From contig JAITVQ010000161.1 of NCBI GenBank assembly GCA_031285745.1, positions 1 to 54,692 on the forward strand: a stretch of DNA of 54,692 nt, given 5' to 3'. How positions within the stretch are numbered: the stretch's first letter is position 1; each line of letters opens with the position of its first letter. Below the pieces are notes generated by a model. That model saw only the letters and a program-made list of their open reading frames with translations, ran no database searches and was not told where the DNA came from. The position numbers were made by a program, and so were the translations under genes. Of this stretch, positions 14,998 through 37,022 are shown piece by piece. Source of the DNA: Puniceicoccales bacterium (lineage in GTDB: Bacteria; Verrucomicrobiota; Verrucomicrobiia; Opitutales; UBA953).

Positions 14998-16041
14998 TCA
15001 GGCGGGGTTTTCCGCTTCAGCCTGCTCGTAGGCTTGCCCGAGGGTGAGCTTCGGATTGTTTTTCCGTAGCTCCTGGGCACGATTGGAGATACGGGAGGCA
15101 CGGGCTTCCTCCGATTTGTCCTTGGCATCTCCGGCCACGACTTCGGGAGTCTTGGCGTTGCGGCGATTGGTCAGCGGATTTCTCGGATCGTCCTTCTTTT
15201 CGGGAAGCATGCCGAAGAGTGTCCGGGCGGTGTCCCGATTCTTCACATACAGGTCGGACATCTCCGTGCGTTTTTTCTCGTCGGTGATGCCGTGTTTTTC
15301 GCAGAGCGCCAAAGCTTCGGCTTTGCGATTTTCCACGACCTCGGCTTCCAGGGTCTTGAGCGACCCGGTTTTCTCGGCAATGGCGGCGAGGATTTCGTCG
15401 ACAGTGGCAGTTTCCGGCAGCCCAAGGGCAGCCGCTATCTTTTTGAGTTCGTCCATGGATGGATTGGTTTGAGTTGTTGTTGGGTCAGATTCAGCGTTGG
15501 AAAGCGGTTGGAGGGTTTTCATATTGGGCCGATTGGTCACGGCGGCCCCGACCAGGCGCGTGGGCCGGAAACGGTTATCGCCGAGCCATTCGAGCATGGA
15601 GCCGGTCGGGAATTCCGGGGACAGGAACCGATACTCCCCGCCCTGGACTTCGTCCTGGGCCGAGTTGGTCCAGCGGATCGGCGCATACACGCCTCCCTCC
15701 CGCAATACCGGTGCGGAGAGCCAGCCAGCCGCCCGCGTGGGCTTGTCGGCATCGTGGGACAGATGGTCGTAATCGACGAGAAGGTCGCCACCCGGGAAGC
15801 TGTTCACCATCGCCTGCATGGCGGCATTGTCCACGACCTGGATGATGACGAGGTCGCCATCCTTGTCGGCCCGGGAGCGGAGCGATTTCTGGGCAGCAGG
15901 CGGCAGGGCGCGGATGTTGGTGACGGTGGAATACTCGCCGGGGGCGACGACGTGGAAGTGCCCGTCTTTCGGAAGTTGGAAATCCCGGTTCAGCAGGGCG
16001 ACCGCAGTCCCGATGATGCGATGGTGGATGGTACGGCTCAT
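14998..16041 (-). CDS. Mu gpI-like prohead protease with a C-terminal scaffold region
   Basis: 347 aa. The N-terminal half (FQLPKDGHFHVVAPGEY...LLVDYDHLSHD...AAGWL...YRFLSPEF) matches the remembered Mu-like prophage I protein signature. The C-terminal half is charged and helical. The start forms an ATGA overlap with the portal stop. Confidence 0.75.
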   Translation of the reverse strand: MSRTIHHRIIGTAVALLNRDFQLPKDGHFHVVAPGEYSTVTNIRALPPAAQKSLRSRADKDGDLVIIQVVDNAAMQAMVNSFPGGDLLVDYDHLSHDADKPTRAAGWLSAPVLREGGVYAPIRWTNSAQDEVQGGEYRFLSPEFPTGSMLEWLGDNRFRPTRLVGAAVTNRPNMKTLQPLSNAESDPTTTQTNPSMDELKKIAAALGLPETATVDEILAAIAEKTGSLKTLEAEVVENRKAEALALCEKHGITDEKKRTEMSDLYVKNRDTARTLFGMLPEKKDDPRNPLTNRRNAKTPEVVAGDAKDKSEEARASRISNRAQELRKNNPKLTLGQAYEQAEAENPA

Positions 16042-18179
16042 GACTTGACTTTTTTGGTGGTTCGCGCAGATTTGGTTTTAACAGGAGGCCGTTCCGGACG
16101 TTTGCCCAAGGCGTTGCAAAGCGCATGCAGCCCCTCTCTGTTTTTCATTTTGTAGAGTGATGTGGGGACGAGTTGTTTTTTTCCGGTGCGGACTTCCTCG
16201 TAGAGATAATAGGTGCCGCCGATCTTGGCTTTATATTCGATGGTCTGGAGCCCGCGTCCCGTTTGCCCTCCCAGACGGATATCGGCCTTGGCAACGATTT
16301 CCGGGATGCGCTGGATGTCGGCCTTGGTGATGGGGACTTGGCCGCGCAGGGTTTCGGTGGCCGAGCCATGCCGCTTATCGATGTGCCGGATTTTGTCGGC
16401 ATCGACTGCCCGCTCAAAGCCCTCGAACTTGAGTCCGGTGGCCTTTTCGAGTCGGGCGGCCTCAGTGCTGTCAACCTTGGCAATCGATTGGGTGCCCTTG
16501 AAATTCTTGTCGGCGAGCGCCTGCTCATAGAAGGTGCCCAGTGCTTGCTTGCTGTCCTCCGACTTAGGGGATGAGGCGCTGGCCCCGTCGCCGGTGAATT
16601 GGCCTCCCTCGGCAGACCCGGCAGGCTGGCGATCCTGGTCGGTGTTTTTGAGTGCAGGCAGGTCGCTGTCCTTAATGCCTTGAGCAACGGCATCGAGCAT
16701 CCCGCGCTCCAGGACGGCAGCGGTGGCATCGGTGCCAAACATGGCCGCGAGATCAGGAACATCGGCCTCGGTGGCAGTGCCTGCCTCCAGCTTGGCCAGA
16801 AACTTTTCGACGAGATCCCGGGCAGGCTCGAAATCCTTGGCCATGGCCCGGAGTAATTCACTCGATGACTCCGGATCGGCGGTCTCGCGATTGAGCAGGC
16901 CCGGTAGACCGGGTGATGGCACCGGAGCCGTGGCCGGCTTCAAGGTAACGATCCAGCCGGTCTTTTCCTTCACCTGGTCGGGATCGACCTGATAGCCAGC
17001 CTGCGAGAGCGAGGCAACCTGGGTGACAGCGGCCCCCGAGTCAGTTTCCTCATTCGCGGCCAGTTCAAAATAGGCGACCTTGGGTTGGCCGGGGAATTCA
17101 GCGTCCAGGATACTGTCGACCAGTTGCCGGTTGAAGGTTTCGGAAATGCGGCGAGCCTCACTGGAGGCGATCTGGTCGAATACTTTCTGGTGGGCACTCC
17201 CGGCCAGTGTGCCGCTACCCGGTGCCGTCAGCATGGTCAATTTCCCTCCGGTCCCGGCGAGGACCAGCTTCTCCGTGAGGAAGTCGAGCCGATCGAGAAA
17301 GGTCCGGGCGTCATGCGGCGGAGTGTTGGGTTGCCAGTTCGATCCGTTGGGCAGGTAGCCACTCCCGCCCTCGGCGATCTTGCGGGCGGCTTCCTCATAG
17401 GCGGCCTCGTCGTCTTCGGCGACATCCGGGGGGCCAATCACGACACCGCTCGGAATGTAGACGCTTTCGTTGAAGGCATCCCAGTCTTTCTCACTGAAGG
17501 AACTGCGGACATGCTTGATCAGTCCGAAGCGATTGATCGGCCTGCGCGATTCCCGGTAGAGAAAATTCTTTGGATGCATATCCATCTCCGAACCGAGTTC
17601 CTCGTAGCCGCAACTGCGGGCGGTGGGATTATAGCGCCAGGCACCCTTGAAACCGTCACGGATCGCGTTCCATTGGTCGACGATCTCCAGGTGGTAAACA
17701 TCACCCCCGGCATCAAAATACTTTTCGCAATGGGCAAAGCCCCGGAAAGGAGCCATGGCCAGATGTTCGATTGCGTCGTAGAGATTATCGATCTTGGCCA
17801 GCTTCTCGCTGATGCAGGCGAACTGCTCATCAACCAGGGTTTTGTCGGCATCCTTTTCGGTGCCGACATTATGGTTCATTTCCAAGATGCGACCGAGGCG
17901 GGCTTCCAGCAGGCCAATCATGTCCGGGTCCGTCTGCTCGACATAATAATAGGTCCACTGCAAGTCGGACATCCGACCCCGCTCATAATCTTCCAGAAGC
18001 GAGATGGCCTTGGCAATGGTCAGGCCCCGGAGCGGATTGAATTGCTCACGCCAGGTGTTGAGTTTCAGGCGGACTCCCATCGACATGGCCCCCGAGGGCG
18101 CAGCAGTCAAACGAATGGGCCTGCCGTGGGCATCATACCAGGTGTCCGGCTTCTTGTTTTTCAAAGGAGTCTTTTTCAT
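16038..18179 (-). CDS. Portal protein (DUF935 / Mu gp29-like) with an extra ~200-aa C-terminal extension
   Basis: 713 aa, about 200 aa longer than the ~512-aa Mu portal. It lies directly downstream of TerL with overlapping start and stop. The extension (aa ~510-713) has a low-complexity linker with GGQF, followed by a domain with DKIRHIDKRHG. Confidence 0.75.
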   Translation of the reverse strand: MKKTPLKNKKPDTWYDAHGRPIRLTAAPSGAMSMGVRLKLNTWREQFNPLRGLTIAKAISLLEDYERGRMSDLQWTYYYVEQTDPDMIGLLEARLGRILEMNHNVGTEKDADKTLVDEQFACISEKLAKIDNLYDAIEHLAMAPFRGFAHCEKYFDAGGDVYHLEIVDQWNAIRDGFKGAWRYNPTARSCGYEELGSEMDMHPKNFLYRESRRPINRFGLIKHVRSSFSEKDWDAFNESVYIPSGVVIGPPDVAEDDEAAYEEAARKIAEGGSGYLPNGSNWQPNTPPHDARTFLDRLDFLTEKLVLAGTGGKLTMLTAPGSGTLAGSAHQKVFDQIASSEARRISETFNRQLVDSILDAEFPGQPKVAYFELAANEETDSGAAVTQVASLSQAGYQVDPDQVKEKTGWIVTLKPATAPVPSPGLPGLLNRETADPESSSELLRAMAKDFEPARDLVEKFLAKLEAGTATEADVPDLAAMFGTDATAAVLERGMLDAVAQGIKDSDLPALKNTDQDRQPAGSAEGGQFTGDGASASSPKSEDSKQALGTFYEQALADKNFKGTQSIAKVDSTEAARLEKATGLKFEGFERAVDADKIRHIDKRHGSATETLRGQVPITKADIQRIPEIVAKADIRLGGQTGRGLQTIEYKAKIGGTYYLYEEVRTGKKQLVPTSLYKMKNREGLHALCNALGKRPERPPVKTKSARTTKKVKS

Positions 18180-19741
18180 GCGGCGGTCCTCCTGCGGGCT
18201 TCAGATCGACGGCTGCCCTCGGGTGGGGAAAATGGCCGGGGCCGGGTCGGCACACCCTTGTTGGTGAGCGCAAAATGGCATTGCTTGAGGGAATCAAAGA
18301 CGTCGCCGTGATTACCTTCGGCATCGGTAGCGTTGGAAAAACTGCCATTGTCACGCTTGACCAGGCGCATATCGTCAAACACCCACTTGTCCGGAGGCAA
18401 CGATGCCTTGCCCTCATCGTAGACGTTCACCAGTTCATTGCCCTGGTACTGCTTATAGCTCATATTCTGGCCGTGGTGGCGGATGACTTCGTTGGCAATA
18501 ATGAGGATGATTTTGACGAGCAGCCGCAGGGCCGCCTTGAGGATGGCCGCAAAATAACGCTCATTGCTGGCATCGACGGACATCATGCGCGGACCGCGTT
18601 TCATGACTGCCGAGCCACTCTTGATGACGAGCTTGATTCGATTCTTGGCGACTTCGGGATCGCTGGTTTTCCATCGCCAGATCAGACGCGGGACAAAATG
18701 GCCATTGACCATCTGCGCTGCCGACAGGACGGACGGGTTGCTCTTTTCCTTGTCCGTCGTGGCAATGTCGAAGCCCAACGCCCAAGGCGCATCGGGTGTA
18801 AGATGGTCGGTCCAGTTGGCGGGTAATTCTGCCTTATCATTAATCGTCGTACAGCGCCTGGCCTCGGGATGGTTCTGCGCCAGCGCAAGGGACACACGGG
18901 AAAGTGCGGCCATGCCACTTGTCGCAAGGATCATGGCATAGTTGCGATCCCAGGACTCTTTGTCGACCGCCAGCGCCCGGTGCTGATCCGGCGTCAGGAC
19001 CTCGCCGCTTTCATAATGGTAGAGCTTGGCCCCGGCTGCCTCGGCATCCCACGCGTCAACGTGGTGGACCATGATCCCGGCCTCGCTGCGATACCAATGG
19101 CCCTCCGCCTTTACCTCTTCCAGTGCCTCCAGCGTTTCCTGGGAAGGCAGCATCAATTCGTGGGAAAAGTGCGAATCGTCTTTCGGCGGCGTGGTGGCCA
19201 GCAAGCAGGTGAAGTCCGGATCACTGGAAAAGATCGGCTCCACCGCATCCCACATATCCTGGAAATCTGGCACCCAGGCGAACTCGTCAAAAAACACGTC
19301 ACCAGTCCAACCACGGGCCGTGGCCGGATTCGGGGCGATTACCTGCAGGCGGGAAAAGGAAGTCCGGTCGTGCCAGAGTTTGACCTTGAGGCGGCCTTTC
19401 TCGAAAATTTCTGCAAAGTCATCGTCGGTGCCGTCGCGGACATTGGTCGTGATCGGCATTCCTTGGGCGTGATTGCGGAGCAGGTCCCGGAATAGCTTGG
19501 CATTCGTTTCGACAATTTCTCCACCGACCAGGAGCGAAGCGGAGACAAATGTGATCCGATGATCCCGTCTGGCGGCCATCCGGCGCAGGCTGCGGACCCC
19601 CAACGAAGTGGTTTTCCCACCCTGGCGTCGCCACTTCTTTATCTGCATGCGCAGGCCCCGCTCATATTCCGTTTCGCGGGCATAAGGCCGGAGGCGGAAG
19701 AGAGGCCGGGGCACGGCAGTGACTGGAGCTTCAGAGGACAA
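18176..19741 (-). CDS. Terminase large subunit (Mu gp28-like)
   Basis: 521 aa. LRPYARE...WRRQGGKTTS is a Walker A-like motif preceded by the LxPYQ-like motif seen in Mu-type TerL. Its position fits. The start is apparently TTG at 19741, because the first ATG at 19648 would remove the conserved N-terminal motif. Confidence 0.8.
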   Translation of the reverse strand: MSSEAPVTAVPRPLFRLRPYARETEYERGLRMQIKKWRRQGGKTTSLGVRSLRRMAARRDHRITFVSASLLVGGEIVETNAKLFRDLLRNHAQGMPITTNVRDGTDDDFAEIFEKGRLKVKLWHDRTSFSRLQVIAPNPATARGWTGDVFFDEFAWVPDFQDMWDAVEPIFSSDPDFTCLLATTPPKDDSHFSHELMLPSQETLEALEEVKAEGHWYRSEAGIMVHHVDAWDAEAAGAKLYHYESGEVLTPDQHRALAVDKESWDRNYAMILATSGMAALSRVSLALAQNHPEARRCTTINDKAELPANWTDHLTPDAPWALGFDIATTDKEKSNPSVLSAAQMVNGHFVPRLIWRWKTSDPEVAKNRIKLVIKSGSAVMKRGPRMMSVDASNERYFAAILKAALRLLVKIILIIANEVIRHHGQNMSYKQYQGNELVNVYDEGKASLPPDKWVFDDMRLVKRDNGSFSNATDAEGNHGDVFDSLKQCHFALTNKGVPTRPRPFSPPEGSRRSEARRRTAA

Positions 19742-24397: not shown

Positions 24398-25003
24398 CTA
24401 GACCGCTTTATTGTCTTTCTTGTCCTGGTTATCGCGTTGCGCCGCGATAGCCTTTCTTCGTGCTTCCGTCCGCTCTCGGGCGCGCTTCAACTCGCCCAGG
24501 GGCAGACGGGTGGATGGCTGTTTTTTGGGTGGTTCCTCTGACTCAGATTCGGATGATACATTTGAGCTGTCTTCATACGTGGGAGAATCTTCGTTGAGTG
24601 CATAATTAGCCGCTCCTCTTGAAATCAAACCCGCATCGTGCGGTTTTGATTTTTGAGAGAAATTGAGAGACTCTAATAAATAAATAATTTTATCTAACTT
24701 AAGTGAAATTTCATGAAAAGGATCGTTTGATTTTTTTCCGATAGCTAAAGGAAGATCAGCTGAGTCATCTGATAAAACATTTTCTCCTAAATTAAAAAAT
24801 AACGCAAGTCTCGATAACATGCGTTGTTGTGGATTATTCACACCTCTACACCATCCATTTATTGTTCCTGAGCTAACGTCCATCTGACGAGCTAACTCAT
24901 ATTGGGACAGTCCTCGTTCTTTCATCAAGAGAGTTAGTTTTTCGGAAAAAAGCATAAGAAAAGATTTAAGCGAAATTGAGAGATTCCGCTTGATTTCACT
25001 CAA
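24398..25003 (-). CDS. XRE/Cro-CI family HTH repressor (Mu c-like role), without a peptidase S24 domain
   Basis: LTLLMKERGLSQYELARQMDVSSGTINGWCRG is a canonical XRE HTH. The gene is divergent from the early operon. The true start may be the ATG at 24955 (MLFSEKL...), which would leave the 24974-25015 inverted repeat intergenic. Confidence 0.8.
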   Translation of the reverse strand: MSEIKRNLSISLKSFLMLFSEKLTLLMKERGLSQYELARQMDVSSGTINGWCRGVNNPQQRMLSRLALFFNLGENVLSDDSADLPLAIGKKSNDPFHEISLKLDKIIYLLESLNFSQKSKPHDAGLISRGAANYALNEDSPTYEDSSNVSSESESEEPPKKQPSTRLPLGELKRARERTEARRKAIAAQRDNQDKKDNKAV

Positions 25004-26608: not shown

Positions 26609-28432
26609 GTGCTGCCGAACATGCCCACTGCCGAACAAGTCCAAACCCTCGCCCAGCGCGGAATCCATGAGGCGGAAATCGCCCACATGCTGGACTGTTC
26701 GCCCGCCACCGTGCGCCGCCTCCTCAAGCCGAGGACGGCCCCGGTGCAGCGGCAGGGGAGGCCAGCGGTGGCCACGTTGACCGACGAGCAGGCCACCGAG
26801 GTCGCCAGCACGGCACTGCGCATGGCGGCAAACACAGATGATACCGTGCCAACGCGGATGGCCTTCCGGCTTTTTGCCGCCGAGTCGCCTAACTGCCCCG
26901 AGGACCTCCGTAAATTCATCCTGGCGCGGGAGCGGTTGCCCGAGGCCATGGTGCGGCAGGTGCGCTCCCGGATCACGCCGGAGCAACTGGAAATGCACCG
27001 GGGCCGCAAGCGATCCAAGTTGCACGTCTTCACGGTGCAGCGCTCGTTGACCCGCCGCGATGAGGAGGGCCACGATCACGACCTGCGAGCGATGGACCTG
27101 ATCACGGCAGACGACGCCCACTTCAACGTCGGGTTCTATTATCCCTGTGACGACGTCCGCATCCCCGGCGTCGAGAAATTTGGCGTGCGGGCCGCCCGGG
27201 CGCAAAATCTGGTCTTTGCCGATATCGCCACCGGGCGCATTATCAGCCAGGCGATCATTGCCCGCTACTCGGACGCCTACAACCAGCGCGACATCCGCTG
27301 GGCCATGATGCGCCTCCTGCGCGATCACGGCGTCCCGCGCTTCGGTTTCTATTTTGAACGCGGTGCCTGGGCATCGCGGGAATTATCCTACGCCTGCGAT
27401 CACATCGGCTCGCCTATCCGCCATGCCTACAGCGCCAAGGGCAAGTCGCTCATCGAGCACAAATTCAACGAGCATCAGCGGGTGATGTCGGCAAAATTGC
27501 GGGTCAACTTCGGACGCACGCGGGGCGAGTTTGACTGGGCAGGCAAGGACTGGTGCGCAGTCCGTGAGGGCAAGGTGCATCCCAGGGAACTCGGTTACCT
27601 GCCCGTCGAGGAATTCATGCAGGTGGTGGATGAAAGCTGGTCCTTCCTGAATGAAATCCCCATGCACGGCCAACTCTATAAAGGCATCCCCGACGAAACC
27701 TGGGAACGCCACCTGGCCGAGGATGAACCCGCCCGCGCTGCCACGGCAGCCGATCTCTGGCAGTTTACGCCGGAGCGCCATGAGGCAACCATCCGGGGCG
27801 GGCAGGTGACCGCGAAGTGCTCCGACTCCGGGATTGTCTACTATTTCACTGCACCCTGGTTTGCCGCCCTGGGCAACGGTTACAAGGTGACCGTTTGCTT
27901 CGACCCGAGCGATCCGGAGCGTGCCGCCATCATCAACCGCGAAATCGGAGCCCGAGCCAAGGTGCGCGGGCACGTCTGCAGCCATGCGCCGGAACTCGCC
28001 GCGCAGTGGAACGATGCGCAGATGTCCCAGGGGCTGCGGTTCGGGGAGTTGATCGGCGTCGCGGAATTCAACGAGCGCTCGCCCTTCATCAATGAGGACT
28101 GGAAGTCGCTGCGCACAACCCTGAAAAAGCGGAGCGAATACTACCGATACTCCCGGATGCTCTACCGCCAACTGGTCCCAGGCCGCCGTCGCGGGGCTTA
28201 CGCGGACGAATGGCGCAACGGCAAGGGCGATGCCTCGCGTATGGAAGTCGGCACCACCGCTCCGGTCGAAATCACCAGCAGCAGCCGGATCACGACGGCC
28301 CCGGCCAATCCAACCACCGTGCGTGGCCTCGGCCTGCACGATATCCCGCGCATCGATCGCGAGTCCGTCGCGGTGCCGTCGCAGGGTGATCGCAGGCCAA
28401 CCGTAGCCGAGGAGCTTTTCGGCAAATTCTAA
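26609..28432 (+). CDS. Mu A-like DDE transposase
   Basis: 607 aa. It has an N-terminal HTH (IAHMLDCSPATVRRLL). Candidate DDE residues lie in AMDLITADD, LVFADIATGRI and FYFERGAW. The gene is followed directly by a MuB-like ATPase. The start is GTG at 26609 or ATG at 26621. Confidence 0.75.
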   Translation: MLPNMPTAEQVQTLAQRGIHEAEIAHMLDCSPATVRRLLKPRTAPVQRQGRPAVATLTDEQATEVASTALRMAANTDDTVPTRMAFRLFAAESPNCPEDLRKFILARERLPEAMVRQVRSRITPEQLEMHRGRKRSKLHVFTVQRSLTRRDEEGHDHDLRAMDLITADDAHFNVGFYYPCDDVRIPGVEKFGVRAARAQNLVFADIATGRIISQAIIARYSDAYNQRDIRWAMMRLLRDHGVPRFGFYFERGAWASRELSYACDHIGSPIRHAYSAKGKSLIEHKFNEHQRVMSAKLRVNFGRTRGEFDWAGKDWCAVREGKVHPRELGYLPVEEFMQVVDESWSFLNEIPMHGQLYKGIPDETWERHLAEDEPARAATAADLWQFTPERHEATIRGGQVTAKCSDSGIVYYFTAPWFAALGNGYKVTVCFDPSDPERAAIINREIGARAKVRGHVCSHAPELAAQWNDAQMSQGLRFGELIGVAEFNERSPFINEDWKSLRTTLKKRSEYYRYSRMLYRQLVPGRRRGAYADEWRNGKGDASRMEVGTTAPVEITSSSRITTAPANPTTVRGLGLHDIPRIDRESVAVPSQGDRRPTVAEELFGKF

Positions 28433-28509
28433 TTTCCCAAAGGAAAGCCCCGCATCGTTGAAGCGATGCGGGGCCACAGAAAACGAACGATACAAACTAA
28501 AGAAACCAC

Positions 28510-29526
28510 ATGAAAGCTACCGACCCTGGCATTGTCAATGCCGCAATCATCTCCGAGGAGTTGGATCACTTGATCGCTCGCGTTGAGCGTCATCAACACA
28601 ACCTCGGACTCAACGATACGAAGTTTGTGGCGCGATATTCCCGCCACCTGAAAACGGTCGACTCCTGGTCGCGGACGTTGAAACGCCGCGACGCCGAGCG
28701 CCTCACAAAAAACAACATCCCGAAATGGACCGAGACGCTTCGCAAGCTGGTCGCGGAAATCGACGGGGCCAGCGAGATGGAGGTTGTCTACGAAAGCCTG
28801 CCCATCCTGCGCTGCGCCGAGCAGCTTTACGAACGGCTGCAGGGAGCCAATAATGATCGCCGGGTCGCCTGGCTGATCGGCCCTACCGGCATCGGGAAAA
28901 GCATGTCGATGCGTTACCTCAAGCGGCACAACCCCCGCGATACGGCCTATACCAAGGTGACCCCGCTGTGGAAGGATAACAAGCGCAGCATCGCCCGAGG
29001 ACTGGCCACCGCGATCGGAACCACGACCGAGCACGGCTCATCGGCCACGCTGGACCATGTAATCGAGCACTTGAAGGGAGCGCCACTTACACTGCTTCTG
29101 GATGAAGTCCACGAAGGCGGCGTGCTGCTTTTCAAGATTATCAAGACGCTGGTGGATGAGACGCCCGTGCGGGTGATGCTCTCGACCTGGCCGACCAGTT
29201 ACCGCCGCCTGGTCAACGGCAGCAGCGAAGCCCTCAGCGAGGCGCAACAACTGCTCGGGCGCTCACTGCGGCCCATCTATATGCAATGGGCGCAGGGTGT
29301 GCGCGAGGAGGACATCATTGCCTTCCTGAAGGTCGCCACGCCGGAGATCAATGACGAGCAACGCCCGCTCCTGGCCAAGCATGTAGCGCTCCCGGTCAAG
29401 AAGCTGGGGCTCCGCCTGCTCGCCGATGTGATCGAAGCCGCCCGTGCCCTGGCTGATGCCAAGGATGCAAACCTTACCCACGAAACCATCAAAACGGTCT
29501 TTGAGGAGATGGCCGCAGAAATTTAA
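28510..29526 (+). CDS. MuB-like AAA+ ATPase (transposition target DNA activator)
   Basis: 338 aa with Walker A GPTGIGKS and Walker B LLLDEVHE. It lies immediately downstream of the transposase. Confidence 0.8.
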   Translation: MKATDPGIVNAAIISEELDHLIARVERHQHNLGLNDTKFVARYSRHLKTVDSWSRTLKRRDAERLTKNNIPKWTETLRKLVAEIDGASEMEVVYESLPILRCAEQLYERLQGANNDRRVAWLIGPTGIGKSMSMRYLKRHNPRDTAYTKVTPLWKDNKRSIARGLATAIGTTTEHGSSATLDHVIEHLKGAPLTLLLDEVHEGGVLLFKIIKTLVDETPVRVMLSTWPTSYRRLVNGSSEALSEAQQLLGRSLRPIYMQWAQGVREEDIIAFLKVATPEINDEQRPLLAKHVALPVKKLGLRLLADVIEAARALADAKDANLTHETIKTVFEEMAAEI

Positions 29527-29530
29527 CATC

Positions 29531-29815
29531 ATGACTACTCCTAAACCCTCACTTCGTAAAAGAATCGCGGCTGCCCGCGAAGCTGCAGCAGACTGGAATA
29601 CCGCCAATCCAATCGGCACCCTGGTGGAATATACGCCACTCTCCAGCGCCAGCCTTGATGTCGAGCGCTGCAAAACCCGCACCCTGGCATGGGTGTTGGA
29701 AAGCGGCTACGCCGTTGTCGCCCTGGAAGGCCGCCCCGGTGGCGTGAGCATCAACCACTGCAGGGTGGTAGTAGCGCAGGCTTCCAGCCTGCAGAAAGGA
29801 GATGATGCGAAATGA
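29531..29815 (+). CDS. Hypothetical early protein
   Basis: 94 aa from the ATG at 29531, 5 nt after the MuB stop. Confidence 0.45.
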   Translation: MTTPKPSLRKRIAAAREAAADWNTANPIGTLVEYTPLSSASLDVERCKTRTLAWVLESGYAVVALEGRPGGVSINHCRVVVAQASSLQKGDDAK

Positions 29816-30204
29816 TGATCCCGGTTTATATCCTTGCGGTGATAGGAATCGTCTGTGTTGGATTTTTCCTATTCGCGATCGCTACCGCCCTTGGTGAGCA
29901 AATCAATTCCGGTCTTTGGAGTTATGGTTCTGTTTTACGAAGCCATATTTCCGGCTTCGGGTGGAAACTCGAACGCGCCCGATTTCTCCGAAAATTCGAG
30001 AAACAGTCCGAGCAAATCAAGATACTCCAAGAGCAAGTAAAACTCCATGGTGAATTCCGCGTGGAGGCTGACAATCGACTCTTTGCGCAGATGGATCGTA
30101 TCAGAAAATTCATCAATAACTGTCGGATTAATCGAGGCAGGAAACCTTCGTGCAATTTAAACCGTAGGCTGGAGAAATTCCTAAACAAAGGGGTATGGAA
30201 ATGA
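29812..30204 (+). CDS. Small membrane-anchored coiled-coil protein
   Basis: 130 aa with an N-terminal TM segment (IPVYILAVIGIVCVGFFLFAIATAL). It is lower in GC than its neighbours and overlaps the upstream stop by ATGA. Confidence 0.5.
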   Translation: MMIPVYILAVIGIVCVGFFLFAIATALGEQINSGLWSYGSVLRSHISGFGWKLERARFLRKFEKQSEQIKILQEQVKLHGEFRVEADNRLFAQMDRIRKFINNCRINRGRKPSCNLNRRLEKFLNKGVWK

Positions 30205-30416
30205 GTAACGATCGCGAGACATTACTTGCCCAGGCATCCGAGGCCGCCCTCGATCTCAAGCATCATGCCAGTGCCTTGAGTGAAAGCCTGGACGCGGGAG
30301 ACATGGAAGCAGCCGAACGTCGCTTGGAAAATATGAACGCGGCGCTGGCTGATTTGCTCCGCTACTGCGAGGCGCTTCGTCGCCTCGCCAACCCCGAGGA
30401 GGTCGGACGTCCATGA
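30195..30416 (+). CDS. Small helical hypothetical protein
   Basis: 73 aa, translationally coupled with its neighbours. Confidence 0.45.
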   Translation: MEMSNDRETLLAQASEAALDLKHHASALSESLDAGDMEAAERRLENMNAALADLLRYCEALRRLANPEEVGRP

Positions 30417-30619
30417 ACCTTACACAGCCGACCTTTGGATATTCCTACGAGTGCGCGAGTGGCTGCATTTCCCGCATGGTCTCGGACAAGCCCATGGGAC
30501 GCTGTAAAGTTCCGGTCGTGATCGTCCCGCAGGAGGTTTTCGACGGACTACAAGGACAGATCGCCTCGCTGGAATATCAACTCGAAACCCTGAAAAAATC
30601 CACCCCCGACCAACCATGA
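30413..30619 (+). CDS. Small hypothetical protein
   Basis: 68 aa with ATGA overlaps on both sides. Confidence 0.45.
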   Translation: MNLTQPTFGYSYECASGCISRMVSDKPMGRCKVPVVIVPQEVFDGLQGQIASLEYQLETLKKSTPDQP

Positions 30620-30936
30620 TCCTCAACAATATAGAACTGGAAGCCTTGAGGCGGCAGGTAGAAGCCCTCACCACTGAGCGGGATCGCCTGCGGGAACGGA
30701 TCATCTGGGCACAGGGCGACAATGTCGACCAGCTCACCTTTATCCCGGTTACCGAACGGGCACCCGATTGCAACCACTTCCTGGCGTTGGTCCGGTACTA
30801 CGAGGATGTCGTGGAGGTCCTTCTCACGCCTTATGCTCAAGGGACCATTTTTCAGACGGTGGCGCATGGCACCATCTGTTCCAGCCAGATCACCCATTGG
30901 CGTCCCATCATAAGGAAGGACGAGACAGTATGCTAA
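30616..30936 (+). CDS. Hypothetical protein (DUF551-like?)
   Basis: 106 aa. An N-terminal coiled coil is followed by FIPVTERAPD...ITHWRPI, which is reminiscent of DUF551. Confidence 0.4.
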   Translation: MILNNIELEALRRQVEALTTERDRLRERIIWAQGDNVDQLTFIPVTERAPDCNHFLALVRYYEDVVEVLLTPYAQGTIFQTVAHGTICSSQITHWRPIIRKDETVC

Positions 30937-31250
30937 CCGCATTTAATCGTCCGACGCTGGAAGCGATCGTCGCCGCGTGCGCACGCGGGTTTGCCGTCAG
31001 CCATGATGCTTTGCTCGGGCGTAGCCGCCGAGGAAACCTTCCGGTGGCTCGTCACGCAATTGTTAGGCTCGCGAGGTACTACGGCTACACCCAACGCGAG
31101 ATCGGTGCGGAACTCAACCGCGTCGTCAGCACCATTACCAAGTCGGAGCAGGTGGCCGATGATCTGCACGACACCTCCGCTGCATGGCGCAACTGCTATG
31201 CCACTGCAGTGGCCACATTTCACACATCAACCAACACTACCCATGGCTAA
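30930..31250 (+). CDS. DnaA domain IV-like HTH protein
   Basis: 106 aa from the ATG at 30930. The sequence HDALLGRSRRGNLPVARHAIVRLARYYGYTQREIGAELNRVVSTITKSEQ resembles the DnaA C-terminal DNA-binding domain (R...a.aRqiamyL.r..t..s...IG..fgrdHsTV). Confidence 0.55.
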   Translation: MLTAFNRPTLEAIVAACARGFAVSHDALLGRSRRGNLPVARHAIVRLARYYGYTQREIGAELNRVVSTITKSEQVADDLHDTSAAWRNCYATAVATFHTSTNTTHG

Positions 31251-31776
31251 AGAAATCAAAATCAAGACCACAAATGAATTCATCGACACGGTCGACACTA
31301 TCGCCCAGAAGAGCGTGCAGCTCACGCAACTGGAAGCGACCCGCGATCGCGAAATCCAGGATGTGCAGGAGCGGCACAAGGGCGGCATTGAGCCGCTGAA
31401 AAAAGAAATCAAGGCATTGACCTCCACGGCGAAGATTTACGCCGAGGACCACCGCACCGAATTGTTCCATGATGCGAGCGCGAAGCGGGCCAAAACGGGT
31501 CTGTGCACCTACGGTCTGATCGTTAACCCGCCCGCGATCAAGAACCGGGGCAAGGCATTCCCGGACGAACGCTGCATCGACCTGCTCAAGCAGAATCGCC
31601 GCCTGGTACGTTTTGTCCGCACCCGGGAGGAAATCGACCGAGAGGCGTTGTTGGCCGCCTATAGCGACGGCGAAATCACCGCCGAGGACCTGGCTGATGT
31701 CGGCCTCAAGCGTGATCAGGATATCCGTTTCGACGTGAAGCCTCTCGTCGACAGCGGCGACAAGGCAACGGCGTAA
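31243..31776 (+). CDS. gam: Mu Gam-like host-nuclease inhibitor
   Basis: 177 aa from the ATG at 31243. It has an N-terminal coiled coil, and RFVRTREEIDREALL aligns with RFIRTKQEINKEAIL of Mu Gam. Confidence 0.8.
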   Translation: MAKEIKIKTTNEFIDTVDTIAQKSVQLTQLEATRDREIQDVQERHKGGIEPLKKEIKALTSTAKIYAEDHRTELFHDASAKRAKTGLCTYGLIVNPPAIKNRGKAFPDERCIDLLKQNRRLVRFVRTREEIDREALLAAYSDGEITAEDLADVGLKRDQDIRFDVKPLVDSGDKATA

Positions 31777-32204: not shown

Positions 32205-32444
32205 ATGGCCCGCACAGACCCTTGCTGCAAACTAATGTTCGCCTCCTTTGTTTCACCATGGCGGTGGACGTTCGCGATCCTTCCCAAGCGCACGCTGGAT
32301 GGGCGTCTGATCTGGCTTATGCCGATCATGACCTGCCGCGCCCATCTCCACGAATGGCTGACTCCACGAGTCAGAGACGAGTGGAATGTTTATTGGTTCC
32401 CGTGGGGATACCGCAAAACGAACCCGGAGGTGCGCCATGGCTGA
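32205..32444 (+). CDS. Small hypothetical protein
   Basis: 79 aa from the ATG at 32205. It overlaps the next gene by 8 nt. Weak support. Confidence 0.3.
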   Translation: MARTDPCCKLMFASFVSPWRWTFAILPKRTLDGRLIWLMPIMTCRAHLHEWLTPRVRDEWNVYWFPWGYRKTNPEVRHG

Positions 32445-33438
32445 GACAACCATTGGCTGGACCGTGACCGTGTTAGCTGATGGGACGATTCTCCCAGGCT
32501 ACACCTTTAACCCGTGGATCGGCTGCACCAAGGTTTCTGCAGGATGCGGATTCTGCTATGCCGAGGCGCAAGATCGTTTCCGCAATTGGACACCGGAGGG
32601 ATGGGGGCCAGGGAGACCGAGGCGACGTACCAACAAGCTATATTGGGAAAACCCACTCGTCTGGAATCAAGGAGCGAGAAATAAGGGCGTACGGTTAAAA
32701 GTATTCTGCGCCTCGCTTGCGGACTGGTTGGATCATGAGGTTCCGATCGAATGGCTGGCCGACTTGCTTGATCTTATTCGCCGGACGCCTCACCTCGACT
32801 GGTTATTGCTGACCAAGAGGCCGGAGAATTTCAAAGAGAGGATGTTGGCGGCACTCCGCCATAATGAAAACAATGGCGGTTCCGAAGAACTTCATGCGTG
32901 GCTTCTCGATTGGGTGACAGGAACCCCACCGTCAAACGTCTGGATCGGCACAACCGTCGAGAATCAAGAAATGGCAGATAAGCGCATCCCGGAGTTGTTA
33001 GATATTCCGGCTAAGGTTCATTTCTTGTCATGTGAACCAATGCTCGGCCACGTGACCATCTCCAATTTTGTCGAATCGGAGATATTAGCATACGCTGGAA
33101 GCTCCCCAGAGTTTGATTGCTGGCAGCCGCACCCATCAAAAAAATGGGTAATTTGCGGGGGAGCCAGTGGCACACAGGAGCAACCATTCTGCGTCGAGTT
33201 TGCCGATGATCTGCGGCGACAATGCAAGGCATCCGGTGTGCCGTTTTTCATGAAACAGATGGGGTCGAATCCCGTCACGTCCAACGCCAATCTATACGAT
33301 TGGCCCGATCACGTGGAGTTCATCGATTACAGCTCTTTCGCCGCTAGTGCAAAAATTCACCTCCGTCACCGCAAGGGCGAGGACATCAACGAATGGCCCG
33401 AGGAATTTCAAGTCCGAGAATTCCCCGCCGTTGCATAA
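32437..33438 (+). CDS. DUF5131 (phage Gp37/Gp68) family three-Cys-motif protein
   Basis: 333 aa from the ATG at 32437. The N-terminus TIGWT...NPWIGCTKVSAGCGFCYAE matches the family hallmark (IEWT..tWNPv.GC...S.GC..CYA). Confidence 0.75.
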   Translation: MAETTIGWTVTVLADGTILPGYTFNPWIGCTKVSAGCGFCYAEAQDRFRNWTPEGWGPGRPRRRTNKLYWENPLVWNQGARNKGVRLKVFCASLADWLDHEVPIEWLADLLDLIRRTPHLDWLLLTKRPENFKERMLAALRHNENNGGSEELHAWLLDWVTGTPPSNVWIGTTVENQEMADKRIPELLDIPAKVHFLSCEPMLGHVTISNFVESEILAYAGSSPEFDCWQPHPSKKWVICGGASGTQEQPFCVEFADDLRRQCKASGVPFFMKQMGSNPVTSNANLYDWPDHVEFIDYSSFAASAKIHLRHRKGEDINEWPEEFQVREFPAVA

Positions 33439-33440
33439 CC

Positions 33441-34316
33441 ATGGAAACGACGCTCTGGAACGTATCGGCAACTCCGTTCAATTTTCTCTCGCTGGGCGGT
33501 GGAGTTCAGTCGTCGACAATGGCTCTTATGACAGCCCACGGCTTGATTGAGCCAACGCCGAATGCCGCGATCTTCGCCGATACCCAGGTCGAGCCGAGGT
33601 CGGTTTATATCTGGCTTGATTGGCTACGGTCAGAAATAGCCCGTTCTCCTCGTCCGTTCCCAGTCTATACTGTTACTAATGGTAATTTGATGGAGCGTGC
33701 TCTAACAATACACACTGCCAAGGATGGCCGAAGATACACAAGGTCCGACGTTCCCACTTTCCTCATAAATGCTAATGGCGAAAAAGGCATGATCCCAAAT
33801 CGTGCCTGTACTGGCGACTTCAAGATTAAGCCCATTTTGAAAAAGGTTCGTGAACTGGCAGGCATTAAACGGGGACAAAAGGAAATTACAGTCACGCAAT
33901 GGATAGGGATTTCATGGGATGAAATGCAGCGAGCAAAACTGTCCCGTGACAAATGGTGTCAGAATCGCTGGCCACTCATTGAGAGAAAAATGACCCGGGC
34001 GATGTGCCTTGCCTGGATGAAAGCGCGGGGCTATCCGCAGCCTCCCCGCTCGGCTTGTTCCTTTTGTCCATTTCACAATGACACAGAGTGGCGTCGCCTC
34101 AAGCTGGAGGAACCGGAGGCTTTTGCCCAAGCTGTCTATTTTGACCGACGCTTGAGAGCCTTAAAGGCGGAAACTAACAACTTCCGCTCTATCCCGTTCG
34201 TTCATCCGAGTCTCAAACCACTTGATGAGGTCGATTTCTCAAACGAGGAAGACCGGGGACAGCTTAACCTGTGGCAAGATTTCAACGTCGAATGTGAAGG
34301 GATGTGCGGAGTATAA
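33441..34316 (+). CDS. PAPS reductase-like PP-loop ATPase family protein
   Basis: 291 aa from the ATG at 33441. It has the PP-loop-like motif LSLGGGVQSSTMAL near the N-terminus and a C-terminal Cys pair, CSFCPFH. Confidence 0.7.
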   Translation: METTLWNVSATPFNFLSLGGGVQSSTMALMTAHGLIEPTPNAAIFADTQVEPRSVYIWLDWLRSEIARSPRPFPVYTVTNGNLMERALTIHTAKDGRRYTRSDVPTFLINANGEKGMIPNRACTGDFKIKPILKKVRELAGIKRGQKEITVTQWIGISWDEMQRAKLSRDKWCQNRWPLIERKMTRAMCLAWMKARGYPQPPRSACSFCPFHNDTEWRRLKLEEPEAFAQAVYFDRRLRALKAETNNFRSIPFVHPSLKPLDEVDFSNEEDRGQLNLWQDFNVECEGMCGV

Positions 34317-34318
34317 TT

Positions 34319-34780
34319 ATGGCCAGCCTCTCCAACGATGACAAACGCGCCTTGGGTAAATTGGCAAACCAGGCATGGAAAGGCATGCCAGAGACCGAAC
34401 GCCAGGCGATTATCGACCAGGCCAGTACGGCCTACAACGACCCACTGGGCGTTTGTAAGTCGGTAGCGTTCACATGGTGGCGGCACCGGGTCCAGGTCTC
34501 GGTGACAGGCAAGTCATCAATGCTGGTCATGGATGAGGACGATTTCGCTAAAATGAAAATACACTGGCTCCGCCTTTTGAAGACACAGGGAGACCAGACC
34601 GCCATCCTCGAAAACAAGGCCAGGCAATACCGCTGGCTGATTCGTCAGGAATGCCTGAAGCGCGGGCACAACTTTCCCGAATATATCAATAAAATCTGTC
34701 GGGATCAATACCGCTGCACCATCGACGCCGCCACACTCCCGCAACTGAGGCGGCTTCTGATCACCATGCATAAACGCTAA
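34319..34780 (+). CDS. GemA/Mu gp16-like regulatory protein (tentative)
   Basis: 153 aa from the ATG at 34319. The C-terminal pattern ...CTIDAATLPQLRRLLITMHKR is similar to DUF1018 proteins. Confidence 0.35.
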   Translation: MASLSNDDKRALGKLANQAWKGMPETERQAIIDQASTAYNDPLGVCKSVAFTWWRHRVQVSVTGKSSMLVMDEDDFAKMKIHWLRLLKTQGDQTAILENKARQYRWLIRQECLKRGHNFPEYINKICRDQYRCTIDAATLPQLRRLLITMHKR

Positions 34781-34782
34781 AA

Positions 34783-36183
34783 ATGAGAAAATCACAGCAG
34801 CAGGAAATGACATTTATTGACCGGGTGCCTCCGCACAACCTGGAGGCCGAGCAAGGGTTGCTGGCCAGCGTTATCATCGACGGTGGAGGCGACATCCTCA
34901 GCCAGTGTTTAACCCGGAAAATCCGGGCCGATTACTTTTTCTCATCCAGTCACCAGTTGATCTTCTCCGCGCTGGTCGAACTCAGCAATAAGGGCACCGG
35001 CATCGACGAAATTACCATTTGTGAAGAATTGCGGACCAGTAATAGCCTGGAGGCTGCAGGTGGCCCGGCCTATATCAACGAACTGACCAACCGGATCGAA
35101 GTCACCGCCCACGCGATCCACTGGCTGGAAATTGTCCGCGAAAAGTATTTTCTGCGGAAGCTGATCAGCACCGCAGTCGTTACCGTCGAACGTGCCTATA
35201 AATCCGGCGACGATCTCGACCACCTGCTCGACTCGGTTGAGCACAGTTTCTTCGAGATCAGCCAGGACCGCATCACTGATACCGCCCAGCACATCCGTGG
35301 CTCAATTGGGGAGGCCGTGGATATGGTCCATTTTCTCAAGGAAAACAAGGGGGCCATTACCGGAGTCCCGACTGGGTTTCCAGACCTGGATCGGCTGTGT
35401 TTTGGGTTCCATCCCGGCCAGATGATCGTGGTGGCCGCCCGTCCGGGCATGGGAAAAACCTCGATCGCTTTGAATTTTGTCGAGGCGGCACTATTTCCCA
35501 GGCACCGGGAGCCGATCCCCACGTTGATGTTCAGCCTGGAAATGCCCTCCCGCGAACTGGCCATGCGCCTCCTGTGCTCCCGATCCCGGGTAGACGTGCG
35601 GCGAGTCCGTGACGGTTTTGTTGATCGCGGGCAGTTGCTGGAGATTGAGAAGGTATCCAGGGAATACCAGGACATCCCCTTTTTCGTCGATGACGCGGGT
35701 GGCCAGAATATCCTGGAGATCAGAGCCAAGGCCCGCCGCCTGCACCAGCAGCACAAGCTGGGCCTGATCATCATCGACTACCTGCAGTTGATCAACGGCA
35801 CCGACAGCAGCGTTAATCGTGAGCAGCAGATCGCCGAGGCATCCCGGAGCATCAAGGCCATGGCGAAGGAATTCGGGTTGCCGATCGTCGCCCTGGCACA
35901 ACTCAACCGCAAGAGCGAGGATGAGAACCGTGCCCCCCGCATGTCTGACCTGCGCGAGTCGGGGTCGATCGAGCAGGACGCCGACATGGTCCTCCTCATT
36001 GACCGCCGCCGTCGTGGCACGAAAAAGGCCGCCAAGGACGGCGAAGAAGAGGAGGCCGAGGTTAACCCTGGCATCGTCGAACGGGACCTCATTGTCGCCA
36101 AGCAACGCAACGGCCCCACAGGCGAGATCCCGCTTCTATTTAACCGGAGCCTTACGCGCTTCGAAACCCCGGCAGCAAAGTGA
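34783..36183 (+). CDS. dnaB: Replicative DNA helicase DnaB
   Basis: 466 aa. The N-terminus PPHNLEAEQGLLASVIIDG is canonical. It also has Walker A ARPGMGKTS, Walker B LIIIDYLQL and the SGSIEQDADMV motif. Confidence 0.95.
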   Translation: MRKSQQQEMTFIDRVPPHNLEAEQGLLASVIIDGGGDILSQCLTRKIRADYFFSSSHQLIFSALVELSNKGTGIDEITICEELRTSNSLEAAGGPAYINELTNRIEVTAHAIHWLEIVREKYFLRKLISTAVVTVERAYKSGDDLDHLLDSVEHSFFEISQDRITDTAQHIRGSIGEAVDMVHFLKENKGAITGVPTGFPDLDRLCFGFHPGQMIVVAARPGMGKTSIALNFVEAALFPRHREPIPTLMFSLEMPSRELAMRLLCSRSRVDVRRVRDGFVDRGQLLEIEKVSREYQDIPFFVDDAGGQNILEIRAKARRLHQQHKLGLIIIDYLQLINGTDSSVNREQQIAEASRSIKAMAKEFGLPIVALAQLNRKSEDENRAPRMSDLRESGSIEQDADMVLLIDRRRRGTKKAAKDGEEEEAEVNPGIVERDLIVAKQRNGPTGEIPLLFNRSLTRFETPAAK

Positions 36184-36716
36184 AGCATCCGCCTCCATTT
36201 TTTGCAAGAGCCTGGCATACTGCCAATCGGGACACATTGCTAAATCCACCAATTAAGGAGTGGGCGCGATTTTATCTAACTCGATCCACAGTATCTGTTG
36301 ATCCTTTTGCTAGAAATTCCAGTTTGGCAAACTGGACAAATGACCTGAATCCTGAAACAGCCGCTAACTTCCACATGGATGCTTTTGATTTTTTACTGCA
36401 TCTTAAAAAAGAAGGGGTGACTTGTGACCTTTGCATATTTGACCCTCCTTATTCACGTGCGCAGGTAAAGGAATGTTATGAGGGAGTTGGGCGTCATTTT
36501 GGGCAAGCCGATTCTCAAGGTTTTACAGGCAACTGGAAAAAGGAACGTGATGCCCTTGATTCGATCTTGGCGCCGGGCGGTGTGGTATTATCATTTGGCT
36601 GGAATTCATCGGGGATGACTTTGGCACGCGGATATACTCTTGAAAGCGTCCTCCTCGTTTGTCATGGAGGTGCCCATCATGACACCATTTGTATCGCAGA
36701 GAGAAAACAGTCGTGA
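36180..36716 (+). CDS. Small DNA (N6-adenine or N4-cytosine) methyltransferase-like protein
   Basis: 178 aa. The GTG start overlaps the dnaB stop (GTGA). VDPFARNS is motif I-like, FDPPY is catalytic motif IV, and LAPGGVVL is also present. Confidence 0.6.
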   Translation: MKHPPPFFARAWHTANRDTLLNPPIKEWARFYLTRSTVSVDPFARNSSLANWTNDLNPETAANFHMDAFDFLLHLKKEGVTCDLCIFDPPYSRAQVKECYEGVGRHFGQADSQGFTGNWKKERDALDSILAPGGVVLSFGWNSSGMTLARGYTLESVLLVCHGGAHHDTICIAERKQS

Positions 36717-36852
36717 CCGGCGCCGGGGCGACGGCGGCAAAATGAACCTCCCGCACGATGCGGGAGACTATTCGCGAGCCTATCGCAGCCACCCCGCGAT
36801 GATCCAGCGGGCATCCCGCGCCTCAAATTTGCCAGCCCCCTCGCTTTATCCC

Positions 36853-36998
36853 ATACCCTTATCACCATTCAGATCATGACCCTTTATAGCATTCTGACCC
36901 CAGATTCAGCCCCAGCCCCACGATCCTTGATTCTATGGGCATTTAAAGGTTCCTTGAATTTATTTAACCCTTTTTAAGGTTTTCCTGCTCTCTCAACA
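36853..36998 (+). repeat. Right terminal inverted repeat and putative transposase-binding end (attR-like)
   Basis: ACCCTTA at 36855-36861, ACCCTTT at 36879-36885 and 36967-36973, TTTCCTGC at 36981-36988, and terminal CAACA ending at 36998. This mirrors the left end. Confidence 0.55.
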
Positions 36999-37022
36999 GG
37001 CGTCTTCTTCATCCTTCTCGGA

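Follow-up and report, generated by a model that had tools for sequence, protein, structure and literature searches.

Phosphorothioation of DNA by the Dnd system needs DndA or IscS, DndD, and DndE besides DndC (PMC8569181), and DndC, which depends on partner proteins (PMC8569181, PMC10853773), has been claimed to use S-adenosylmethionine (SAM) through its 4Fe-4S cluster (PMC10853773). Phage 3′-phosphoadenosine 5′-phosphosulfate (PAPS) reductases were described in a 2026 survey as homologues of DndC and SspD lying in variable regions, which are hotspots for anti-defence genes (PMC13551039). After transfer into a related phage, two phage-specific genes of Vibrio phage 44E38.1 enabled the recipient to grow on a Dnd host, one of the two being a fusion of a PAPS-reductase domain with a Dam methylase (bioRxiv 10.1101/2021.05.05.442762). 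The DUF5131 family has been placed in the radical-SAM superfamily, in megacluster-5-2, beside spore photoproduct lyase (PMC9477430), and our literature searches on DUF5131, PF07505, and Gp37/Gp68 found no functional study. Genes for a DUF5131 protein and for a predicted PP-loop, PAPS-reductase-like protein stand next to each other in the stretch of DNA analysed here, a contig of 54,692 nucleotides from a Puniceicoccales bacterium (JAITVQ010000161.1; hereafter the window), where they open a block of five genes. An earlier note on this DNA had proposed that the block is a dedicated module for DNA modification or anti-restriction, placed beside the replicative helicase. Our analysis revealed that the five-gene block is not a conserved unit and left the claim of a module mostly unsupported. 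Instead, we lean, though only slightly beyond even chances, toward reading it as the distal variable end of a Mu-like early operon, made up of independent accessory genes around DnaB that most likely serve counter-defence and do not form one pathway.

The block occupies positions 32437–36716 and consists of five co-directional, tightly packed open reading frames (ORFs) on the + strand, as read directly and from the ORF list. These encode the DUF5131 (PF07505) protein, predicted to belong to the radical-SAM superfamily (333 aa, 32437–33438; assigned by Pfam, PHROG, PADLOC, and the fold of its AlphaFold2 (AF2) model), the PP-loop PAPS-reductase-like protein of the DndC/SspD type (291 aa, 33441–34316; assigned by phrog_424, a partial PADLOC SspD match, and fold), a protein of 153 aa without library match and without assigned family (34319–34780), a DnaB-family replicative helicase (466 aa, 34783–36183; PF03796, PF00772, and TIGR00665), and a predicted small DPPY-motif DNA methyltransferase (178 aa, 36180–36716; phrog_11619), which is the final gene before the prophage–host junction. 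The junctions read TAA-CC-ATG, TAA-TT-ATG, and TAA-AA-ATG, followed by a GTGA overlap of the DnaB stop with the methyltransferase start, and this direct reading confirmed the gaps of 2, 2, 2, and −4 nt listed in the earlier note. A GGAGG sequence lies 7 nt 5′ of the DUF5131 ATG (32437). Promoter-like and terminator-like sites were not more frequent in the block than in shuffled sequence, and because such internal sites do not exceed chance, a single transcript fits the block. Judging from the gene packing, the genes would be co-translated and expressed early.

Distribution and adjacency of the DUF5131 and PP-loop genes

The co-occurrence of the two families was determined in samples centred on each gene, whose 10-kb flanks were searched with hidden Markov models (HMMs) built from two alignments, A1 and A2; 371 loci were fetched in total, and the census rests on the best 80 loci rather than on all IMG/VR and INPHARED genomes. 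None of the 86 IMG/VR loci centred on the PAPS-reductase-like gene and four of the 80 such loci from GTDB genomes contained a DUF5131 gene within 10 kb (4/166 together). The reciprocal sample, 113 IMG/VR loci centred on DUF5131, yielded a single clear PAPS-reductase-like gene at a distance of 7.4 kb (L272) and two weak PP-loop matches. In the control, 80 IMG/VR loci centred on DnaB, DUF5131 was found once and the PAPS-reductase-like gene not at all (0/80). Thus, the pair co-occurs at about 1%–3%, which is indistinguishable from the DnaB-control background, and pairing of the two genes is not obligate. A fused query against INPHARED found the pair in three closely related Mycobacterium abscessus prophages among 212 matching records. 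The nearest relatives of both window proteins, the DUF5131 homologues with 52%–55% identity and the PAPS-reductase-like homologue with 72% identity, are unpaired, and homologues of the 153-aa protein and of the small methyltransferase were absent from all 371 loci. The earlier note had itself called for this comparison and had named co-occurrence no better than chance as a ground for abandoning the module; the comparison was carried out, and the pair did not rise above the control. Considering that the relatives are unpaired and the other block members are not conserved with the pair, the proposed unit of DUF5131, PP-loop enzyme, and methyltransferase beside DnaB could not be upheld.

No conserved neighbour of DUF5131 emerged from 38 viral loci, where the most frequent neighbour cluster was present in only four. 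This cluster is a family of proteins of about 600 aa, one member of which (in L004) has a ParB_N domain. In phage phiE125, gp38 immediately precedes gp37, the DUF5131 protein; the possibility that gp38 is an unrecognized PAPS reductase was examined and rejected. DNA methyltransferases, helicases, and recombination genes adjoin the PAPS-reductase-like family far more often than DUF5131 does: within 4 kb of the gene, 169 loci contained N6/N4 methyltransferases (26), superfamily 2 (SF2) helicases (25), C5 methyltransferases (22), and DnaB (20), and terminase, PDDEXK exonuclease, ERF, and recombination genes were also frequent. The family adjoins DNA methyltransferases in about 13%–15% of its loci, and its neighbourhood is of an early-region, DNA-modification type. 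Hence the broader theme of the earlier note, DNA-directed modification or anti-restriction, appears about right, given the relationship to SspD and DndC, the methyltransferase neighbours, and the phage–Dnd precedent.

Where the two genes do meet, their arrangement recurs. Four independent lineages have DUF5131 immediately before the PAPS-reductase-like gene: the window, the M. abscessus prophages, the Sphingobacteriaceae genome L161, and an acidobacterial locus (L135). The two genes overlap by 1 nt in the three related M. abscessus prophages, where the DUF5131 protein is annotated as “RNA methyltransferase”. In L135, a Terracidiphilus genome, a 112-aa DUF5131 remnant that retains only the Cys motif (3020–3355) directly precedes an intact PAPS-reductase-like gene, suggesting that DUF5131 decayed there while its neighbour was retained. 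In two further loci (L133 and L137) the genes lie 1.3–1.7 kb apart in the opposite order, and in L048 they are separated by 6.4 kb. Direct adjacency in four of about seven independent co-occurrences is above what uniform placement among about 25 gene slots would give, a rough estimate and not a formal test. The adjacency could come from shared insertion hot spots for accessory genes or from a facultative functional link. It is very improbable, in our estimate, that some temperate phages, a minority spread over at least four bacterial phyla, have repeatedly joined DUF5131 and a DndC/SspD-like enzyme into a translationally coupled cassette whose two products together would install a DNA modification, possibly containing sulfur, without DndA, DndD, or DndE; if this were true, the cassette would be a minimal phage-borne DNA-thiolation system.

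The PP-loop family was also seen on chromosomes. In Chloroflexota, Dehalococcoidia, and Latescibacterota, a homologue of the PAPS-reductase-like protein with 40%–42% identity heads a conserved co-directional island, at 9941–15690 of L206 and in about 18–20 other GTDB loci (L180–L208), in which it is followed by an SF2 helicase, a protein of about 517 aa without match, a PLD-like protein, and a 307-aa protein. In L206 a glycerol kinase gene and a GerM-like gene immediately precede the island, which resembles an as yet undescribed defence-type island combining modification with a nuclease.

Family and fold assignment of the five proteins

The PAPS-reductase-like protein matched phrog_424, “PAPS reductase” (E = 1.2e-43), and, in part, the PADLOC model of SspD (E = 1.4e-15; residues 119–238 against profile positions 78–202 of 277). 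Pfam gave no match even at E = 10, hence PF01507 did not recognize it, and Pfam domains were precomputed for 0 of the 120 homologues listed. No PADLOC match to DndC or BrxP was obtained. More than 7,400 matches mark this as a large family, and its conservation is unusually strong, many metagenomic relatives sharing 57%–77% identity. Invariant in alignment A1 are SLGxGVQSS, FADT..EP, C123, C189, PPRSxC206xxC209P, and the C-terminal EC285EGMC289G; the first of these follows strand 1 and represents the N-terminal P-loop. The AF2 model (mean predicted local distance difference test score, pLDDT, 89.8) matched LarE[4Fe-4S], GMP synthetase, NcsA, CysH, TtuA, and TilS in Foldseek, and its top match among viral models was a Vibrio phage PAPS reductase (E = 4.5e-9). 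Fold, P-loop, and phrog_424 together place the protein in the PP-loop ATP pyrophosphatase/PAPS-reductase-like superfamily, and by sequence and model it is predicted to be a PP-loop protein of the PAPS-reductase/DndC/SspD kind. It is probably Fe–S-binding because of its invariant cysteines. The earlier description of a PAPS-reductase-like PP-loop enzyme was therefore borne out by phrog_424, the partial SspD match, and the fold, with the exception of the PF01507 profile; the comparison with BrxP of BREX type 4 was lost, since neither a PADLOC BrxP match nor BREX genes nearby were found.

Neither DndA, DndD, or DndE nor SspA, SspB, or SspC partners were detected among the operon genes at 25–37 kb, which comprise transposition genes, Gam, DnaB, a methyltransferase, and unknowns, or in the 169 loci of the family. 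Sequence and profile searches of the PDB sequences with the DUF5131 and PAPS-reductase-like proteins gave nothing significant. The CxxC and the following helix of the family (positions 153–240 of the A1 profile) aligned weakly (E = 1.1) with chain C of PDB 21fy, a protein of 270 residues named PptA, through the common pattern C-x2-C...W..[IL]....P..FA; a literature search found no paper on it. Alignment of the family profile with the E. coli CysH sequence by hhalign reached a probability of 0.6%, covered only FADT..EP and K-x-x-P, and was not relied on.

The DUF5131 protein matched PF07505 with E = 6.4e-62 (209.7 bits against a gathering threshold of 28.9 bits) and phrog_2045 with E = 3.7e-70, and its C30-x6-C37-x2-C40 motif was invariant in 45 aligned homologues, so the family and the three-Cys motif named in the earlier note both stood. 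In PADLOC it matched the candidate multi-gene defence components PDC-M30B and PDC-M41B (E = 1.3e-37), and in NCBIfam weakly the models of rSAM mobile pair A and B. Its AF2 model (pLDDT 90.2) found spore photoproduct lyase (4fhf) as top match in the PDB with a probability of 0.99, but with E = 2.2e-3 and a TM-score of about 0.36. The fold search thus agrees with the published radical-SAM placement of the family (PMC9477430), and we infer that the protein is a radical-SAM enzyme with predicted SAM chemistry, whose nearest solved fold is that of a DNA-repair enzyme. Residues 241–250 (33160–33190) read GGASGTQEQP, and the family consensus is GGESG..ARP; the latter, presumably the SAM-binding GGE motif, is therefore not kept in the window copy. 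E243 and R249 are conserved to at least 90% in the family, and among 14 sequences compared the window copy was the sole deviant at these positions (E243A, R249Q). DUF5131 genes commonly adjoin a gene for the three-Cys-motif partner TcmP, and no TcmP match was found among the five block proteins in an NCBIfam scan (E up to 1).

The DnaB assignment of the earlier note was confirmed by PF00772 (E = 7.2e-22), PF03796 (E = 3.5e-87), and TIGR00665 (E = 6.1e-126, 420.7 bits against a cut-off of 385), with both the N- and C-terminal domains present. The last protein has the DPPY motif and matched phrog_11619, “DNA methyltransferase” (E = 3.8e-35), in support of the small methyltransferase reported earlier; in Pfam only sub-threshold matches appeared, and no methyltransferase family reached threshold. 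Homologues occur in 26 phage records, several of them annotated as adenine-specific DNA methylase, and the protein is predicted to be an ordinary orphan DPPY methylase. Its identity with the Dam of Vibrio phages, also 178 aa, was rejected as these belong to different families and the equal length is coincidental.

The 153-aa protein, encoded between the PP-loop gene and DnaB, had no match in Pfam, NCBIfam, PHROG, or PADLOC, and a word-indexed search returned no relative besides the protein itself. Exhaustive phmmer searching found about 70 distant, unannotated homologues of 150–220 aa with conserved W54, R55, G64, Y122, and a C-terminal ..T..R. The label “GemA-like” of the earlier note was not supported: neither the protein nor 35 distant homologues (36 family members scanned) matched PF06252 or any other Pfam or PHROG entry, and hhalign against Mu GemA gave a probability of 1.8%. 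Its position directly before DnaB invites the speculation that it has a helicase-loader-like role.

The block in its Mu-like prophage

Upstream of the block, the same early operon contains on the + strand a Mu-type transposase gene (26609–28432; phrog_310, E = 2.2e-13) and a gene for a MuB-like ATPase, transposition protein B (28510–29526; phrog_296, E = 3e-15; PF13401, AAA_22). Small + strand ORFs within 26609–31776 separate the latter from a gene for a DnaA_C-like helix–turn–helix (HTH) protein of 115 aa (30903–31250, + strand), and Gam follows (31246–31776, + strand; PF07352, E = 1.3e-19); phrog_491 (E = 4.4e-21) was a further match in this upstream part. The HTH protein resembles the C-terminal DNA-binding domain of DnaA (PF08299, E = 2.9e-7, 30.9 bits, slightly under the cut-off of 31.5 bits), and the stop codon of its gene overlaps the Gam start. 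Since its early operon combines transposase A, ATPase B, and Gam, the element is Mu-like in gene content, and the transposable-phage setting described in the earlier note was borne out by phrog_310, phrog_296, and PF07352.

The ORFs beyond 37 kb are cellular (MacB/FtsX, ABC, HlyD, and OEP efflux proteins, Omp85, HemN, EamA, and sulfatases), and the G+C content falls to 0.49 at 36–38 kb; for these reasons the block is placed as the last stretch of the prophage before the host junction. The non-coding stretch at 36717–37022 is expected to hold the right prophage end, with host genes beyond. The named relatives of the DUF5131 and PAPS-reductase-like proteins belong to Verrucomicrobiota, which makes a verrucomicrobial host of the prophage probable.

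The layout of the prophage is unlike that of Mu. The structural genes, among them portal (16038–18179) and terminase (18176–19741), are on the − strand and the early operon is on the + strand, and both diverge from a regulatory region at about 24.4–25.5 kb that includes a Cro/C1-type HTH repressor gene (24398–25003, − strand, opposite to the early operon). Consequently, the transposase gene is central and does not adjoin a genome end. The early operon also contains a full-length DnaB gene (34783–36183). Mu relies on host replication proteins, hence a phage-borne DnaB seems unusual for a Mu-like lifestyle.

Alternative explanations and comparison with described systems

On the reading we favour, individually mobile accessory genes would have been collected around the phage DnaB helicase, and three orphan enzymes of nucleic-acid-acting type, the PP-loop DndC/SspD relative, the DPPY methyltransferase, and the DUF5131 radical-SAM enzyme, would each act separately. 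The methyltransferase would mark phage DNA against restriction–modification, the PAPS-reductase-like enzyme would either disturb a defence based on phosphorothioates (Dnd or Ssp) or mimic its modification half, and DUF5131 would apply radical chemistry to DNA or RNA, the counter-defence operating early in infection. The location of the block at the prophage–host junction, a typical place for cargo, supports the view of accessory genes. Several points weigh against this reading. The same-order adjacency, by our rough estimate, is not explained by complete independence of the two genes. The strong conservation of the PAPS-reductase-like family suggests a real, constrained enzyme, less like a fast-evolving inhibitor, and a lone DndC-like protein, by analogy with Dnd, cannot phosphorothioate DNA (PMC8569181). 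The substitutions E243A and R249Q may have left the window DUF5131 protein inactive or altered, cofactor binding included. The Vibrio experiment moved two genes together, which weakens the precedent, and fusions of the 44E38.1 type were not among the tblastn matches (E up to 1), which contained only Vibrio homologues of the full-length, 285-aa type; lacking detectable sequence similarity to the window protein, the precedent holds only at the level of the domain superfamily. Finally, the biochemical activities of the block proteins, their early expression, and their part in counter-defence are ones that we infer.

An auxiliary role, in which the PAPS-reductase-like protein would boost host sulfate assimilation like CysH and DUF5131, working as spore photoproduct lyase does, would repair phage DNA damaged by UV or radicals, seems unlikely. 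Public records do label the homologues PAPS reductase, PHROGs places phrog_424 among auxiliary metabolic genes, CysH is among the fold matches, and the lyase is the top PDB match of DUF5131; however, the protein fails PF01507 altogether, carries extra invariant cysteines, and has SspD as its best match in the defence library, its neighbours are DNA methyltransferases, helicases, and recombinases instead of sulfur-metabolism genes, and the lyase match is weak (TM-score about 0.36). Improbable, too, is a single pathway by which DUF5131 and the PAPS-reductase-like enzyme, perhaps with the methyltransferase, would equip phage DNA during replication with a new modification that might contain sulfur; the PP-loop enzyme would activate the substrate, leaving the difficult chemistry to the radical-SAM enzyme. 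The tight coupling in the window suggests such a pathway, as does the same gene order in the M. abscessus prophages, in L161, and, with a truncated DUF5131, in L135, together with the proximity within 1.3–1.7 kb in L133 and L137. A further point is the resemblance of DUF5131 to a radical-SAM enzyme that acts on DNA, and the claimed use of SAM by DndC (PMC10853773) makes combined radical and PP-loop chemistry on DNA conceivable. Nevertheless, for each family the other is missing within 10 kb from about 97% or more of the loci sampled, a rate that matches the DnaB control, and the closest relatives of both window proteins stand unpaired. Neither the small methyltransferase nor the 153-aa protein turned up with the pair in any fetched locus, the genes are 6.4 kb apart in L048, an intact PAPS-reductase-like gene persists beside the 112-aa remnant in L135, and the window DUF5131 has lost two nearly invariant residues of the GGE-type motif.

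We give a still lower probability to a prophage-encoded defence, in which the block would shield the lysogen from other phages and the end of the prophage would carry, as cargo, defence systems to which DUF5131 and the SspD-like protein belong. The matches to PDC-M30B/PDC-M41B and SspD, the position at the prophage edge, and the chromosomal island with SF2 helicase and PLD-like protein headed by the same PP-loop family in Chloroflexota and Latescibacterota all point in this direction. Against it, the genes lie within the transposase–Gam–DnaB early operon and show no separate promoter beyond chance expectation, which makes their expression in the lysogen improbable, and no partner components (TcmP, SspA, SspB, SspC, SspE, or a nuclease) are present in the block.

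Each component of the block belongs to a known, poorly understood kind of phage accessory gene. What remains of interest is the recurrent adjacency and the two very widespread phage enzyme families without assigned function: the DUF5131 and PAPS-reductase-like families each have thousands of phage or prophage relatives and no demonstrated biochemical function. The independence of the two genes guards against claiming a new modification system from one operon and directs work at each gene singly. For such work, the analysis provides the motifs of the PP-loop family (P-loop, CxxC, and the C-terminal ECxGxCG), its methyltransferase company, the Chloroflexota island, and a list of coupled loci. 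If either enzyme modifies DNA, its product would join the few non-methyl DNA modifications with which phages counter host defences.

Compared with its own family, the DUF5131 protein is typical in its strong PF07505 match and invariant C-x6-C-x2-C motif, and it differs by E243A/R249Q and by the absence of a TcmP-like partner from the block. The PAPS-reductase-like protein shares with DndC and SspD the PP-loop fold, the partial SspD HMM match, and conserved cysteines including a CxxC pair, whereas the match is limited to residues 119–238 and the operon encodes no DndA/D/E or SspA/B/C partners. The canonical PP-loop motif is SGGxDS, and the P-loop of the window protein reads SLGGGVQSS instead. 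With PHROG 424 and with p0018 of Vibrio phage 44E38.1 (Piel et al.) it has in common a PP-loop domain of the PAPS-reductase type, a variable phage region, and orphan DNA methyltransferases nearby. Unlike p0018, a fusion linked experimentally to Dnd escape, the window protein is of the full-length type (291 aa), has no methyltransferase fused to it, and keeps a conserved, Cys-rich C-terminal half; the methyltransferase of the block, encoded downstream of it with two genes in between, comes from another family. Mom of phage Mu offers an anti-restriction analogy (PMC13551039), for in both cases a gene of DNA-modification type occupies the right-hand extremity of a Mu-like genome. The proteins, however, are unrelated, and Mom is a late gene whose product has an acetyltransferase-like fold, whereas the genes of the block close the early operon.

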